Positions 8,050 through 48,731 of a DNA stretch of 64,000 bases are shown here, in pieces (within the stretch, counting starts at the first letter, position 1; each line of letters starts with the position of its first letter). The DNA is from Deltaproteobacteria bacterium (GTDB lineage Bacteria > Myxococcota > JACRCW01). The position numbers were made by a program, and so were the translations under genes. The stretch is from contig JACRCW010000040.1 of the NCBI GenBank assembly GCA_016218805.1, forward strand, positions 1-64,000, read 5' to 3'. The notes beneath the pieces were generated by a model. It did no database searches, was not told the origin of the DNA, and saw only the letters and a list, made by a program, of their open reading frames with translations.

Positions 8050-10620
8050 CTAGCCCACCCCGGCGGCCCGCCGCGGATCCGCGCGGCGCAGCGCGGAGAC
8101 CAGGGCGCCCAGCTCCGGCCCACCCTCGACGTGACCCGCCGCGCGGCGGGCGTTGTCCAGGGACTCGGCCATCTCGCGCGCGCTGATGAAGCGGTCCTCC
8201 GGGTGCGGAGCCAGCGCCCGCTCCAGCACCTGGCGCAGGGCGGCATGCAGGCCGCGCGGCAGGGGCGCGGCACGGCACTGCTGGTGCGCGGCCAGGACCT
8301 CGCCGTCGTCACGGCCCTCCACGGGGAAGGCGGGTTCCCCCGTCAACAGCAGCTGCAGCACGCACCCCACGGCAAACACGTCACTGCGGGCATCCAGCAC
8401 ATCCAGCCGCGCCTGCTCGGGTGAGAGGTAACCGGCGCTGCCCACGACATCCAGCGGCGGTGCATCCACGTGCGTGAACACGCACGCGCCGAAATCCGTG
8501 ATGCGCACCGTCCCGTCCAGGCCCAGCAGGACGTTGCGGGGCGCCAGGTCACGGTGGACCAGGCCCAGCGCGCCCGCCGCTCCGCGCGCGCGGTGCGCGT
8601 GTTCCAGCCCCAGCAGCGCCTCCATCACCACATGGGTCCACACCCCCGGGGCCACGGTGACGCCGCGGCGCCGCGCCGCCTGCCACGCCCGCTCCAGGTC
8701 CAGGCCGTCCACCAGCTCCATGACCAGGAACGGCTCGCCCGCCGCTTCGCCACGGGCCAGCGCGCGGACCACGTTGGGATGGTTGAGCCGCTGCATCACG
8801 TCGCTTTCGCGCATGAACCCGGTGACCGCGGGGATGTCCATCTGGACCTCGGGCCGCAGGCGCTTCACCACCACCAACTCGCCGGTTGTCAGCGCGCGCG
8901 CGCGGTAGACCTCCGCGGCGCCGCCCACCGCCAAGCGGTCCAGCAGTTCGCAGCCGCCCACCACGGGGCCGCGCGGTGCACCCGCCGGCGCCGGGACCGG
9001 GGGTGGCGTCAGCGGGGGCGGCGTCAGCGGCGCGGGCAGCGGCGGCGGCCGCCGGACGCGCGCGGCCACTGCGGCGCGGGCGTCCTCCCAGGCCTGCAGG
9101 TGCCGGGCGTGGACCTCGCCGTCCAACAGCGTGCGGGCGGCGGCGTCCCGCCGGGTGCGGATGACCTCCAGGGCCACGCGTGCCGGGCCGGTGCGCAGGC
9201 CAGCGTCCAGGGCCGGCGGACCAAACTGTCCGCGGTGCGCCTCGGCCGCCGCGTCCACTTCCTCCGGGCCCGCCTGCTCCCCCACGCCCAGCACGGCCCA
9301 CGCCGGCGCGCGGTGGGTGCGCAGGAATTCCTCCGCCACCCGGTTGCGGACCGCGCGCTCCTCCGCCGCCGTGGACTCACCCACCCAGTCCCGCCCGTCC
9401 TCCGGCGTCCCCACCACCGGCCGCTCCTCCAGCCCACCGCCCGCGGAGCACAGCAGCGCCACCCACTGCCGGCGCTCTGCACCCAGGGCGGCGCTCAGCA
9501 TGGCTCCCACGTTGGCCGCGGGGAACAGCGTGGGTGGCAGCTGGCAGGCGGCGCCACCTTCGGCGGCCACCGCGCGCAGCAGCGTGGGCACGACGGCCGG
9601 GATGCTGGTGGCCCGGGGGGGAGCCGCGCACCGGCGCGCCAGTTCCGCTTCCACCTGGTCCTCCGGCAGCACGTGGAGCACCGCCTGCTGGATGGCCATC
9701 ACCGGGTCCAACCGCAGCGTGGCGTGCAGGTCCGCCAGCGCGTCGTACGCGGTCATGTCATGCACGCCGTCCCACGCGCACAGCGCCTCCAGGATGATCC
9801 GCCGGGCATGGCGCTGCACCGCCACCGCCACCACCCAGGGCTCCACACCCGCCAGGTGCGCCACGGCAAGCGGGAAGGGCTGGTCCTGCTCGCGGGCCAG
9901 CCGCGCGGCCGCGGCCACCTGCGCGGGTGCCAACATGCAGGCGGTGCGCAGGGCGGCGGCCAGGCTCTCATCCGGCACGCTGCTCTCCGCGGCGACCAGC
10001 AGGCCGTCACGCACCACCAGGCGCCGCACGCCCGCGGCATCCCGCACGTCAACCTGGCAGTCCGCCCGGCGGGCGCGCGCCGCCAGCAGCAGCGCCGCCA
10101 GTGCACCCTCCGCGTTGGCATGCGCCGCCCCCGGGCCCTCCGCCGCCAGCGCGTCCGCCAGGTCGCCCGGTTCGGTGTGGCGCTCGTCGTGGTTGGGCTC
10201 ATGAGCCGCACCTCCGGCCGGCGGCCCGCTGGCCGCCTCCTCCATGCAGCGGTCCAGCACGCCCATCATCTCCCGGAGTGCCAGCGGTTTTCCCAGCGCG
10301 GCCTGGACGCCCAGCCGGTCGCGAATTTCGTCCGCGCGGCCGGGTGACACGGACGCCGAAGCCACCACCACCGGCACCGCCGCGCCGCGCGGGTGACTGC
10401 GGATCAGGCGCACCAGCTCGCCGCCGGTCATCCACGGCAGCATCAGGTCAGACAGGACCAGGTCCGGGACGTCCTGCTGGAACATCTCCCACGCCTGGCG
10501 GCCGTCTGACGCCCGGCGCACCGTCACGCCCTGCGCGGTCAGGTAGCGGCTGATGAGCAGCGCGGTGTCGGCATCATCCTCAACAACGAGGACCGAGTAG
10601 CCGCGCGTGGGGTTGACCAT
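8050..10620 (-). CDS. Hybrid signalling protein: receiver domain + DUF4388-like region + degenerate J-like region + Pro linker + Ser/Thr protein kinase
   Basis: VLVVEDD...PDLVLSDLMLP...GKP (REC). Kinase motifs LAVGGAAEVY, VVVKRL, HRDLAPRNVLL, TDFG, GYLSPEQ, SDVFAVG. Confidence 0.85.
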   Translation of the reverse strand: MVNPTRGYSVLVVEDDADTALLISRYLTAQGVTVRRASDGRQAWEMFQQDVPDLVLSDLMLPWMTGGELVRLIRSHPRGAAVPVVVASASVSPGRADEIRDRLGVQAALGKPLALREMMGVLDRCMEEAASGPPAGGAAHEPNHDERHTEPGDLADALAAEGPGAAHANAEGALAALLLAARARRADCQVDVRDAAGVRRLVVRDGLLVAAESSVPDESLAAALRTACMLAPAQVAAAARLAREQDQPFPLAVAHLAGVEPWVVAVAVQRHARRIILEALCAWDGVHDMTAYDALADLHATLRLDPVMAIQQAVLHVLPEDQVEAELARRCAAPPRATSIPAVVPTLLRAVAAEGGAACQLPPTLFPAANVGAMLSAALGAERRQWVALLCSAGGGLEERPVVGTPEDGRDWVGESTAAEERAVRNRVAEEFLRTHRAPAWAVLGVGEQAGPEEVDAAAEAHRGQFGPPALDAGLRTGPARVALEVIRTRRDAAARTLLDGEVHARHLQAWEDARAAVAARVRRPPPLPAPLTPPPLTPPPVPAPAGAPRGPVVGGCELLDRLAVGGAAEVYRARALTTGELVVVKRLRPEVQMDIPAVTGFMRESDVMQRLNHPNVVRALARGEAAGEPFLVMELVDGLDLERAWQAARRRGVTVAPGVWTHVVMEALLGLEHAHRARGAAGALGLVHRDLAPRNVLLGLDGTVRITDFGACVFTHVDAPPLDVVGSAGYLSPEQARLDVLDARSDVFAVGCVLQLLLTGEPAFPVEGRDDGEVLAAHQQCRAAPLPRGLHAALRQVLERALAPHPEDRFISAREMAESLDNARRAAGHVEGGPELGALVSALRRADPRRAAGVG

Positions 10621-11031
10621 CCGGAGGGGCTCCCAAAGTCCGCGCCACGGGCCGCGAACCGGACGGCGCGAGCATAGGAGCGTGGCCCCGCTGCCGCCAC
10701 CGGCCTGCCCGGGCGCTTGCTCCATCGTCACGGACCGCATTGGAATGAAGGGCGGCGCTGTGCAGGGCCAGGCTGTTGTCAGCGGCCGCCGCCCAGGCGT
10801 CTGTGGGACCGCACCCGTGCCTCAGAGAGCGCCTCCGAGTCGACAACCTGGTTCCTTGACCTCCGTGAACATTGCGGCGCGGCGGCGTGGGTTTCGCTGC
10901 AATGCGACGCCGACAGGAACGGACCACCAACGGGGATGCCCGCATGCGAATCCATGTTCCGCTCCTGACCCCACGCGGCGAGGAACCCGCCTGGCTCCGG
11001 ATCGTTTTCCGCTACCCCCGCGCAGCCATCC

Positions 11032-11345
11032 GGTGACCGCCCGGGGCAGCATCCGTGGGCCCTGGCGACCGCCCGGTGACGGACCCGGACCCCATCCGTG
11101 CCCCAAGGCGACCCCTTCCGTGACCCCAGGCGCCCCGTCCGTGACCCCCGGCGACGGCCTGGTGACCCCACCTCCACCTACAGGTGACGCCCTTCCACCT
11201 ACCTGGTGACCCCCACTTGCCAGGGCGGTGACCCCCATCAGCCCCGCCGGTGACCCCCGCCTACCCCCACACATGACTCCACCCACCTACATCCTGCCCC
11301 CGGAACCAGGCACGGGTGACCCCCGGAAACCCCTCCGGTGAGGCC
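11032..11345 (+). repeat. Helically phased non-coding repeat array: 15 units of about 22 bp, each starting with an SGTGACCCC-like core
   Basis: Units start at 11032, 11054, 11075, 11097, 11119, 11140, 11161, 11183, 11205, 11227, 11249, 11272, 11293, 11315 and 11337 (intervals 21-23 bp). The top strand is strongly C-rich. Confidence 0.9.
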
Positions 11346-11415
11346 AAGTTGCACCCGTGTCGGGCGCGGGCAACAAGTGGCAACCCAAACCAAGAACAAC
11401 GAGGGGAGCGAACCC

Positions 11416-12216
11416 ATGGCAACGAACGTGGAGGAGTTGAACACCCTGGAACTGTATTTCTTTGGCCCGCTGGCACTGGTGGTCCTGCGGCGCCACAAAA
11501 CCGTCATTGGCGCCCTGATGATCGCCGAGGGAACCGCTCAGTGGCTGGCGGACATTGAACGGTCCGTTCCCCAGACCCGGGACGCGGTGGAGAAACAGAT
11601 CAAGGAGGAAGCGGACGTCACCGCGGCGCTGGCGGCGGCCGGGGTGCACCTGGAGAAGTTGGGGCCGTGGCGGCGGGTGATTGAGCGGACGGCGTTTTCC
11701 ACCAAGGACAAGACGCGCCGAGAAGAACTGCTCAAGGTGGCGGGCTACGGCCTGGGGCAGGTTGAGTCCCCCAAGGAAGCCAAAGAGTTCCTGGTGAACG
11801 TCAAACCGCTGGTGGAAATGCGGAAGGACATGCTGCTGGGGCGGGGTCTGGCGCCTGCGGTGGTGGACTTCCCGATCAACACCTTGGCCGCCATGGAGTC
11901 GGAATCAGGCAACGTGGCCAAGGAGAAGGCGGAGGCGGCGCTGGCCGGCACTCACACGCGCAAGTGCCGGGCGGAGTTGAGCTCCATGTTGGACCGCGCG
12001 GATGACTCCGTGGAGATCCTGGTGCAGCAGTCCCTGTTCCTTGACCCGGCGCAGCGCAAGGCGGTGGAGGACCTCAGCGCGGAGTGGTTGGCGGCGCTGA
12101 ACGAGGCGCGGGTGCTCACGCGCAAGCGCGTGGAGCAGGGGGACGTTCCGCCCAGCCTGGTGGACGGCCCCTCCACCACTCCACCCGCCACCACGCCCGC
12201 GGGTACGCCGGGCTGA
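11416..12216 (+). CDS. Hypothetical all-alpha protein (266 aa) with apparent two-fold internal repeat and Pro/Thr tail
   Basis: GAGGGGAG RBS at 11401-11408, ATG at 11416, strong GC3 bias, amphipathic helical composition, tail PSTTPPATTPAGTPG. Confidence 0.85.
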   Translation: MATNVEELNTLELYFFGPLALVVLRRHKTVIGALMIAEGTAQWLADIERSVPQTRDAVEKQIKEEADVTAALAAAGVHLEKLGPWRRVIERTAFSTKDKTRREELLKVAGYGLGQVESPKEAKEFLVNVKPLVEMRKDMLLGRGLAPAVVDFPINTLAAMESESGNVAKEKAEAALAGTHTRKCRAELSSMLDRADDSVEILVQQSLFLDPAQRKAVEDLSAEWLAALNEARVLTRKRVEQGDVPPSLVDGPSTTPPATTPAGTPG

Positions 12217-12324: not shown

Positions 12325-13539
12325 TCAGGGCATTGGCTGGTCCGAAGTGGGCACAGCAGGGCTGTACTCGCCCAGGAGGCTGTTCACGGCTTCTATGTCT
12401 GCCGGGTACAACTTCCGCCCGTCGACACACACTTCGAACTGGAGCAACCCTGCAGGGCCACCGTCGAACGCGTCGACGGTGACGCAGCCGAGGACGAGTT
12501 CGAGACGGCGCTGGAGTTCCACGGCGTCCCGCTCAAGGAGACGACGAGCTGTCTCTGCCGGTGTTTCGCTCGACTGAGCGCCCATGGTCAGGAGGCGGAC
12601 CTGCGTGCATTCGGCGTCAACACAGCGCCACTCGTTGGAAGACTGAAGGGTTGGGCGAGGGGCATCGCCAGGGTGGTCGGCCAACGGTAGGCCGCCGTCA
12701 ACGTCCGCGTACCGATTCGCGGCGAGAACCTCATACTTCCGTCGAAGCTCGCCCGAACTTCCGTTGAGGGTGTCAATGACTAGAGGCCTTCCATCGGCAT
12801 AGCCGGTCGCGACCAGGTCGTCCACGTCCAGTTCCGTAGCTTGGCGGACCCGTCGCCACACCCGGACGGTGGCATGAGCGCCCTCAATGGTAGGACCAAT
12901 CTTGATCAGCCTTTGCCAGAAATCCGGAGTTGACCGCGTTGGCTCCTGAAAGCCGGAGTTCCATTTCGGAGCCGCCTCTGAGACTGATGCCAGCTCGCTA
13001 GGCGAAACAGAGACCCTGTCGTCACGGTGTCGGGAGCCAAGCTCAATCACGATCTGCTCGATGCGAGCCGGTGCGACAATGTCGAAGACCCACTCCCGGA
13101 AGATCTCGTTGGCAAACGGGATGACCCTATCGCCCGTTCGCAGCGGGATCGGCACGCGGGAAAACACGCGCGACACAATGTCGCTGGTGCGCTGCACTCG
13201 TGAGCCATCCGCAGGAGGTGACAACACCCCGACGAGACTGGGAATCCAGACCACAAGGCAGGCGACGTAGACAGAGCGCCGAACGGCAGGCGAGAGCGAT
13301 GATATCCGCGCTTTCGATCCTCCGAACGCCAGCACAAGACCATATCGCTTCGCATAGAATGCGGTACCTGCATAGGCCAACAGAATCACAATCATGACGG
13401 ACACGGCTCGTGTGGGGGTTCCCAGTGCAGAGCGGAACGCGGACCACGCCTGCAGCAGGGCCCCGAGTCGGTCCACAAAAGTGATACCGAGCACCACGAC
13501 GACAAAGAGCACGTACTGCCATCGACGGAGCTTGTTCAT
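12325..13539 (-). CDS. Hypothetical membrane protein (three N-terminal TM segments), compositionally foreign
   Basis: Long ORF, ATG at 13539 (MNKLRRWQYVLFVVVVLGITF). Lower GC and many TCGA sites compared with neighbouring genes. Confidence 0.65.
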   Translation of the reverse strand: MNKLRRWQYVLFVVVVLGITFVDRLGALLQAWSAFRSALGTPTRAVSVMIVILLAYAGTAFYAKRYGLVLAFGGSKARISSLSPAVRRSVYVACLVVWIPSLVGVLSPPADGSRVQRTSDIVSRVFSRVPIPLRTGDRVIPFANEIFREWVFDIVAPARIEQIVIELGSRHRDDRVSVSPSELASVSEAAPKWNSGFQEPTRSTPDFWQRLIKIGPTIEGAHATVRVWRRVRQATELDVDDLVATGYADGRPLVIDTLNGSSGELRRKYEVLAANRYADVDGGLPLADHPGDAPRPTLQSSNEWRCVDAECTQVRLLTMGAQSSETPAETARRLLERDAVELQRRLELVLGCVTVDAFDGGPAGLLQFEVCVDGRKLYPADIEAVNSLLGEYSPAVPTSDQPMP

Positions 13540-13648
13540 CGGAAAGGCCCTGAGGGCAAACAAAGAGACAGGTAGCCGCGCACTCGGGGCCTGCCCCGAC
13601 GTCCGTGATGACAGCCGAGGGGAGCCTAGGTGGCATTCTGTTGGTGGG

Positions 13649-47642: not shown

Positions 47643-48731
47643 TCAGGCCGCCGGGGCCCGCTTCCAGCTCTGCAGCAGGCCCACGGTGGGCGGCGTGGGT
47701 CCGCGGAAGTACCAGTTGGTGGACTGGGACACGTACAGGCCCCACGCGTGCACCAGCGTGCTGCGCGGGTAGCGGGCCAGGCTGACCAGCGCCTCGCGCC
47801 ACATGCGCGGCCGGGTCAGCGCAGCGCGCTGGATGACGCCCAGGCAGAACTCGGCGCTCAGCCGGTAGTCCTCGCTGATGTCCTCCTCGCGCTCCAACCT
47901 GAAGTGCGGCTCCCCGCGCGCGGCCAGCCGCTCCTGCACGGCGGCCAGCTCGCCCCGGCACGGGTGCCAGCCGTTGTACATGTGGTGCAGCCACCCAAAG
48001 TGGTACGCGTCCGAACCGGCCGGGTGCCGGAACGGGCTGCGCAGCAATTCCGCCGGGTCCGGGCGCCGCAGGAAGTGGATGGTGGAGTTCACCACCCGGC
48101 CCGCGGCCGAGCGGGGATCCAGCACGCGCGCCAGGATGCGGAACAGCTGTTCGTGAATGGCTCCGTCCCGCCCCGCCACCACGTCCCGCGGCTGCACAAA
48201 GTGCTCCAGCGACCCCTTGAGCACCACCGCATCAAACTGCCCGTCCCACTCCGGGCCGATGTCCCGGTAGTTGAGGCGGTAGGCCGTCAGACCGCGGCGC
48301 GTGCATTCGTCCACCTGCGCCGGCACCAGCGTGATGCCCACGGCCTCCGCGCCCAGCGCCGCGGCCTCCGCCAGCAGTTCACCGTTGCCACACCCTATGT
48401 CCAGCACCCGCGGCCGGCCCGGCCCTTCCCACCGGCCACCCTCGCGCCCAAACAGGCCCAGCTCCACAATCTTGCGGTTCTGCAGCCGGTGCGCCTCGTC
48501 GTGCGGGCGCTTTGGGTCATCCGCGTAACGGCCCTCGTTGTAACCGGCCAGGCCCGCGCCCTTGAACACAATCCGGTGGAACGGACCGCTGTAGCAATCC
48601 ACCACGCCCGGCTCCCCCGTGGACGTCGCCAGCGCGCGCGGCGGCGGCAGCGGTCGGGCGCGCGCTCCGTCGGCGGGACCTCGCTCCGCCGCGGGCTTTT
48701 CCGGTTGCGTCGTCGTGGTCGCGTCCAGCAT
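47643..48731 (-). CDS. Class I SAM-dependent methyltransferase (cyclopropane-fatty-acyl-phospholipid synthase-like)
   Basis: RVLDIGCGNG, GITLVPAQ, NYRD, QFDAVV...SLEHF, EDYRL. Confidence 0.78.
   Translation of the reverse strand: MLDATTTTQPEKPAAERGPADGARARPLPPPRALATSTGEPGVVDCYSGPFHRIVFKGAGLAGYNEGRYADDPKRPHDEAHRLQNRKIVELGLFGREGGRWEGPGRPRVLDIGCGNGELLAEAAALGAEAVGITLVPAQVDECTRRGLTAYRLNYRDIGPEWDGQFDAVVLKGSLEHFVQPRDVVAGRDGAIHEQLFRILARVLDPRSAAGRVVNSTIHFLRRPDPAELLRSPFRHPAGSDAYHFGWLHHMYNGWHPCRGELAAVQERLAARGEPHFRLEREEDISEDYRLSAEFCLGVIQRAALTRPRMWREALVSLARYPRSTLVHAWGLYVSQSTNWYFRGPTPPTVGLLQSWKRAPAA

Follow-up and report, generated by a model that had tools for sequence, protein, structure and literature searches.

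The window analyzed here, a 64,000-nucleotide stretch from a Deltaproteobacteria bacterium (contig JACRCW010000040.1), carries at positions 11010..11345 of the forward strand a satellite whose repeat unit is as long as two helical turns of DNA and which lies upstream of the gene for an all-alpha-helical protein, P0001. The pair is one of about 30 array-and-gene cassettes in this genome (G000), in which several protein families of one helical type take part. We favor, at a probability of roughly 0.45, the view that these are two-part cassettes, each composed of a cis satellite locked to two helical turns and a helical protein gene, the product of which putatively assembles on the phased cores of the array. 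The period lock, the association of array and gene across genomes and the placement of arrays on either side of the gene are observations. What is new is the link between array and gene; the satellite class itself has already been published.

The array and the helical protein beside it

The array consists of 15 units and one degenerate unit, 21-23 bp in length and built around the phased core SGTGACCCC, as judged by its periodicity and by homologous arrays elsewhere in the genome. All of the units that a first-pass annotation of the sequence had listed, including the degenerate one at 11010, were found where it had placed them, and the spacing that it had reported holds as well: every step is 21-23 bp, and 305 bp over 14 intervals gives a mean of 21.8 bp. 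When positions 11000-11350 were compared with 1000 dinucleotide shuffles, autocorrelation at a lag of 22 bp gave z=6.9, with harmonics at lags of 43 (z=4.4), 44 (z=3.5) and 65 (z=3.7); the maximum among the shuffles over every lag was z=4.4. Matches between 5-mers peaked at lags of 21-23, 32, 43-44 and 65-66, of which the peak at 32 fits a GGCGAC motif at the half period. That motif is found in the gene-distal sub-array (11032..11160, + strand), whose units are the more homogeneous, as judged by comparison of copies and by a spacer consensus of 69%. The gene-proximal sub-array (11161..11345, + strand) has diverged spacers, among which CACCTAC recurs, and the order of these spacers is the same in all three genomic copies (3/3). 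Over the whole array, 88% of cells agree with the consensus at core positions 2-9 versus 54% at positions 10-21, the figures for the right half being 90% for the core and 50% for the spacer. The earlier claim that spacer sequence is not conserved is therefore correct only in part: spacers vary inside the array, but the same spacers recur, in order, across its genomic copies.

We confirmed that the array is genuine and non-coding. Stop codons interrupt frames +0, +1, +2, -1 and -0, only frame -2 being mostly open, and none of the ORFs over the array is accepted by a codon model built from this genome, in keeping with the prior assertion that this is not a peptide repeat. The second 22-bp array that TRF detects in the window, at 47920-47973, falls inside a called gene.

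Beyond the array end at 11345 is a leader (11346..11415, + strand) with a Shine-Dalgarno-like GAGGGGAG at 11401-11408, and the ATG of P0001 lies at 11416, 70 bp past the array. No match to a sigma-70 promoter or to a terminator was seen in the leader. Divergent from P0001 across the array is a gene (8050-10620, - strand) for a receiver domain fused to a Ser/Thr kinase; another gene that starts with a receiver domain, similar to this one, abuts a 22-bp array at G000:C44:65545. Convergent with P0001 is a 412-aa ORF (12325-13563, - strand; ~60% GC, in a genome assembly of 6.43 Mb and 70% GC), which has no Pfam or NCBIfam match and looks like a recent acquisition. The neighbors (receiver-kinase, orphans, a thioesterase and an outer-membrane efflux protein) bear out the observation that no Rep or Par gene is nearby. 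Parts of the locus are covered by contigs from four DNA sequencing runs; the junction 11350/11600, of the type found in the C19 copy described below, recurs in one of them.

P0001 (11416..12216, + strand), which we take as the cassette partner of the array, is a 266-aa orphan of a family, alpha, that has 26 representatives at 50% clustering. The model (pLDDT 95) is all-helical, without strands, and has long helices at residues 43-94 and 152-208. Relative to its C19 copy P0001 has a dN/dS of 0.35, and it is acidic (pI 5.5, net charge -5; the alpha-family median pI is 5.6). Pfam and NCBIfam searches returned no family, no DNA-binding domain and no transposase, and a Foldseek search with the model found nothing in the PDB at E<=0.001 and nothing in BFVD. 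By VIA-align, the best match for P0001 was a chemoreceptor sensor domain (Z 8.8, rmsd 4.1, 192 residues aligned) and the best for a model from the delta family reached Z 8.7; all lie within the range of generic helical bundles, and we do not accept them as a specific fold identity. Nor do we accept the Avd/IVS four-helix bundles (2RLD, Z 6.5 and 8.0), which are in the same noise range. The alpha and delta models match the same generic bundles with a constant offset of ~17 residues, and the signal for an internal two-fold repeat is moderate in the kappa and delta families (41-47% and 5-33%) and weak in P0001's own (2-4%). No match to P0001 was found in phages and none to the delta family in plasmids. 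An alignment of five sequences detected no related locus among genome contigs and one metagenome locus, with only 52 bp of upstream sequence.

Arrays and helical orphan genes across genomes

A periodicity scan of G000 yielded 64 candidate regions. Among 115 intergenic tandem arrays detected by TRF (at least 3 copies and at least 60 bp), 72 have a period of 20-23 or 42-44 bp, and 32 of the 43 intergenic arrays whose period is not divisible by three are at 22, 43 or 44. With five scan regions excluded as coding or doubtful, 88 arrays were grouped into 16 multi-member sequence families and 50 singletons, the units of which are mostly unrelated between families; homogeneous, young-looking sub-arrays coexist with degenerate, old-looking ones. 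The proposal that period is conserved and sequence is not, which had been made for the window array, is supported genome-wide in G000 and between paralogues.

Several other features of this landscape were noted. In five arrays (G000:C75:14566-14821, C141:31691-31969, C158:97181-97500, C60:50148-50358 and C167:8795-9015) the two halves are inverted, as exemplified by a 22-bp array of CACCAGCA units followed by TGCTGGTG units, and because the halves are in opposite orientation large hairpins are possible. Two arrays with a 71-73-bp period at G000:C59:44293-45848 combine a constant repeat with a variable part and are CRISPR-like. A dispersed repeat of ~200 bp is present in more than 15 copies (G000:C10, C31, C54, C148 and many contig ends); several cassette genes adjoin or contain a copy, and it causes breaks in the assembly. 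Finally, AAA-ATPase-like and DUF262-like genes, labeled by eye from N-terminal motifs and of a type found in defense islands, abut arrays or cassettes at G000:C10:3394-4647, C167:7600-8754, C59:38206-39354, C96:46345-47415 and C133:99054-100640.

Many other arrays in G000 abut orphan genes of 130-310 aa that are rich in helix-forming residues and make up about 10 small families, and in 12 of the 16 multi-member array families at least one array lies next to a gene of this kind. Using a flank periodicity score and threshold of our own, we found a score of at least 20 for 27 of 31 helical-orphan family members versus 169 of 4760 genes in G000, a count that is circular because the families were seeded from array neighbors. 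As an independent test we turned to other genomes, where an array is present within 600 bp of 29 of 70 helical-orphan genes (alpha, gamma, delta and kappa); in the controls, taken from 400 kb of nine genomes, the figures are 3 of 183 for genes and 2 of 94 for gaps. The Fisher p value, 1e-15, is overstated because kin are not independent. The external set came from four family alignments run against 250-400 genomes of the phylum, with 50 of 57 external delta matches included; its 87 entries were reduced by two fragments and by 15 of 16 same-genus presumed orthologues (all 16 of which were negative), and with no same-genus exclusion the count is 29 of 85. The dominant periods near the external genes are 21, 22, 42, 43 and 44, and 41 of the 70 genes have no array at our threshold.

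For the alpha family, the first-pass suggestion of a tie between the array and the gene downstream stands at the level of the family: an upstream array with a period of ~22 bp is present at all six alpha loci with flanking sequence (6/6, one of them weak; locus L029, which has no flank, is not counted). All three near-full alpha genes in G000 (3/3) have an upstream array, with periodic scores of 105, 183 and 48, and the C35 paralogue of P0001, which is 29% identical to it, has a different one. Elsewhere, L025 has strong 22- and 21-bp arrays (score 229, shuffle p 0.005), L021 a degenerate array (score 23, shuffle p 0.005) and L023 a weak one (score 14, shuffle p 0.01). L021 and L025 are paralogues in a single genome (G021) whose proteins are 83% identical; they have the distal flank and the leader in common, and the arrays in between align poorly.

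Profile comparison by hhalign joins several of the helical families: gamma to kappa at 75-84%, kappa to zeta at 96-97%, delta to beta at 76-86% and delta to the C141 protein at 92-94%, with controls at 0-1%. P0001's family is linked weakly, to iota at 21-65% and to delta at 4-20%, and showed no profile link to gamma. The array-linked proteins are, like those of DUF6261 (PF19775), all-helical and of ~250 aa; gamma members in genome G032 pass the Pfam cut-off for DUF6261, and a delta protein compared by structure with a DUF6261 cluster gave a TM of 0.56 over 199 residues. The nearest named Atlas cluster for P0001 is 16% DUF6261 (score 0.92, 181 shared features) and is absent from its structure hits. 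P0001 and seven relatives differ from DUF6261 in having no PF19775 match, as found for P0001 (E<=1), for the C35 paralogue and for six other relatives. Because the links are weak or indirect, we call P0001 DUF6261-like in type and not a member. The papers found for DUF6261 look unrelated. The hagB gene product is probably DUF6261-like, and its gene probably has 42-bp upstream repeats.

The core itself is not confined to these genes. Sets of three phased GTGACCCC cores are present in many phyla, at 122 loci or more, and on 13 viral contigs, and a search with 11 helical-family profiles gave a match at one of these 135 loci (full flanks being available for only 80 of the 122 genome loci). That locus belongs to a Myxococcota MAG and has a beta-family gene, with the array on its downstream side; the same MAG has a second copy of the GTGACCCC array with no helical-profile match. 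Many 21-bp GTGACCCC satellites without such a match were also seen in Sinomonas species (L163, L166-L167, L171, L176 and other loci). Given this spread, the core is not an operator specific to one family, and satellites of this kind are often without helical genes.

Copying and decay of the cassette, and its relation to known repeats

The window array (contig C159) has homologs in C19 (90% over 260 bp) and C67 (84% over 236 bp). Array homology among the three starts and ends inside the array, and gene homology among genomic copies stops no more than 3 bp from the stop codon. The number of gene-distal units varies, C159 being without one ~21-bp unit that is found in C19 and C67. The copies are in different states of decay: in C19 the leader and the first 60 codons have been replaced by ~900 bp containing an oppositely oriented lipoprotein-like ORF, in C97 only a frameshifted 3' piece of the P0001 gene is left, and in C67 only the array. 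Among other families, the seemingly solo arrays of C76 and C44 have protein-level remnants of a parent gene, and C1 has a short DNA remnant of one. The cassette duplicates as a unit, and the sequence of its array turns over under a fixed period. The simplest reading is that array and gene are copied together and that the gene is lost first, leaving solo satellites. At G000:C97:20290-20640 (approximate coordinates) an AT-rich palindromic element is present twice ahead of the 3' gene remnant.

Iterons and plasmid centromeres such as sopC are direct repeats set at integer helical turns beside a gene, a geometry that the first-pass annotation had invoked. A one-off site of that type is not supported, given the lack of a Rep, ParA or ParB partner and the dozens of unrelated chromosomal arrays of the same period; unlike in iterons and sopC, moreover, the core of the window array is not family-specific. 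In REPIN-RAYT systems the parent gene is flanked by its own repeat family and solo repeats lie elsewhere, and the cassette resembles them in having a gene with its own repeats nearby and solo repeats. It differs from them in that the repeats are direct and phase-locked and that at least some of the solos arose by decay of a cassette and not by independent movement of a repeat. We rejected the REPIN-RAYT assignment, as P0001 is all-helical without strands, shows no HUH transposase signature and has no Pfam or NCBIfam transposase match. A CRISPR array, in which repeats of ~23-50 bp would alternate with unique spacers about as long, was also rejected: the core here is 9 bp and the spacers are 12-14 bp, and there is no Rfam match at E<=1.

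The array does belong to a class of satellites defined by Subirana and Messeguer, whose earlier survey in bacteria is PMC6749651. Repeats of 20-23 nt, equivalent to two helical turns, with constant size and variable sequence are present in many bacterial groups (PMC8161180). The window array is non-coding and has 15 units spaced 21-23 bp apart, where the class calls for four or more of about 20-23 nt that mostly agree in length to within 1 nt; its genome holds several families of like length and different sequence, and the arrays of G000 have in common with that class an intergenic location, many families per genome, two-turn units, doubles near 40-44, unrelated sequences and short characteristic motifs; the array as such is thus of a known kind. 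The sections of PMC8161180 considered here report no known function for constant-size satellites and name no linked gene, whereas the arrays described here are tied to genes for small helical proteins; unlike the satellites described in those sections, the window array has diverged spacers around a kept core. Section 4.1 of PMC8161180 suggests a protein that requires a constant repeat size in order to polymerize on DNA.

BrickBuilt, a mobile 23-nt minisatellite-MITE of Porphyromonas gingivalis, is like the arrays here dispersed and intergenic, close to two turns in unit length and variable in unit number, with copies that do or do not have flanking parts (PMC4596501). As described in the portions of that paper considered here, it has a leader and a tail with IS5-like terminal inverted repeats and a single repeat family; in the cassette, by contrast, homology ends at the array ends and a non-transposase gene is attached. 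We rejected a MITE of the BrickBuilt type, as no shared terminal inverted repeats were seen and both limits of the homology among C159, C19 and C67 lie inside the array. A pairing of arrays with helical-protein genes was not found in the literature searched, outside of which were the 2020 J Bacteriol satellite survey and supplements.

How array and protein may work together

Our best guess is that the array is a putative same-face loading platform, as was proposed at first pass. The cassette protein, alone or with a host factor, would assemble in a cooperative manner on the short cores, whose phasing puts them on a single face of the DNA; assembly on one face would place spacing under selection and leave the core free to drift. 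The two long helices of P0001 have 52 and 57 residues, or ~8 nm at 0.15 nm per residue, and one repeat of 21.8 bp is ~7.4 nm, such that helix and repeat may match in length. Candidate roles of the nucleoprotein complex would be self-regulation, protection or spread of the cassette, and anchoring of the nucleoid. Counted in favor of this explanation are the period lock, the association of array and gene in the alpha family and in other genomes, the differing arrays of the G021 paralogues, the core and spacer contrast between C159 and C67 given below, the array families with a gene-linked member, the gene remnants at solo arrays and the polymerizing protein suggested in PMC8161180. Counted against it are the acidity of P0001 and its lack of a DNA-binding domain, the 41 external genes with no array and the negative same-genus loci, the many GTGACCCC loci without helical genes, the lack of a core and spacer contrast between C159 and C19, and the weak homology of the alpha family to the other families. 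A bolder proposal, which we regard as doubtful, is that helical orphan and DUF6261-like proteins are the missing partners of constant-period satellites, forming widespread, transposase-free selfish cassettes; in each, an ~8-nm rod would measure two turns, build a phased filament on its own array, drive the birth and turnover of 21-22/42-44-bp satellites and seed solo arrays.

The alternative that survives best, although we consider it unlikely, is that the array serves regulation or silencing through multiple sites, is read by a host factor (a nucleoid-associated protein or a transcription factor) and controls the neighboring gene, the job of the helical protein being unrelated. This would suit the acidity of P0001, the position of the G021 arrays, which have conserved sequence on both sides (the distal flank and the leader), and the promoter activity that BrickBuilt segments show in E. 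coli (PMC4596501). Placement gives a divided answer. Alpha-family arrays are all upstream, but the external arrays lie upstream and downstream, respectively, in 2 and 0 cases for alpha, 3 and 4 for gamma, 6 and 7 for delta and 6 and 1 for kappa. The idea of a specifically upstream element accordingly fails, arrays being downstream about as often in related families. Dozens of unrelated cores per genome would also need many readers or a reader of DNA shape, and arrays outlast the gene.

Turnover of the array raises an improbable but distinct explanation, namely that the cassette protein, or a process involving it, generates the satellites by acting as a length ruler for local duplication in steps of 21-22 or 42-44 bp, in which case the period would be a mutational signature and not a selected binding geometry. 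Array sequence has been replaced between close paralogues with flanks and gene kept, the gene may have its array on one side or the other, different families have unrelated units and young-looking and old-looking sub-arrays lie side by side, all as a ruler would produce. On the other hand, no catalytic motif and no nuclease or polymerase fold was found, and satellites of the same size exist at loci without helical genes. Of two comparisons between copies, one shows stronger conservation of cores than of spacers: between C159 and C67 differences fall at 7 of 80 core sites versus 28 of 127 spacer sites (p=0.013), and between C159 and C19 the counts (6 of 80 versus 12 of 127, p=0.80) show no such contrast.

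We think it quite improbable that the association is neutral, with satellites created by slippage piling up alongside orphan genes in hot spots that tolerate insertions. Several cassettes do have clusters of other dispersed repeats and of foreign-looking genes nearby, and flanks of less than 65% GC are found at 22% of 37 cassette genes versus 10% of 4752 genes, with medians that do not differ (p=0.44). But slippage leaves the lock on periods of 22, 43 and 44 unexplained, and this reading is already weakened by the frequency of arrays in gaps, which is 74 of 1029 in G000 (gaps of at least 200 bp) and 2 of 94 in the control regions, versus 29 of 70 for helical-orphan genes. Least probable of all is that the array works as RNA, either as the repeat-structured leader of the first-pass alternative or as a trailer, and that the protein binds it to form a ribonucleoprotein. 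The array does abut the leader, and z is < -3 for the folding of 9 among 27 gene-linked arrays (20 shuffles each), but the window array folds like its shuffles (z=+0.31) with no Rfam match, periods cluster at integer B-DNA turns, GC skew relative to the gene ranges from -0.39 to +0.49, and neither palindromes nor strand skew are consistent among the 27.

The locus offers candidate partner proteins for a class of bacterial repeats that is known and unexplained. That satellites of unrelated sequence in bacteria have one repeat length in common is a puzzle to which a compact unit of array and gene is a concrete candidate answer, a polymerizing protein having been suggested in PMC8161180. Natural variants are at hand in near-identical proteins that lie beside different arrays and in solo arrays that have no gene. 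If the cassette protein does assemble on its phased array, this would be the first function for DUF6261-like helical proteins and would account for the origin of many solo intergenic satellites.
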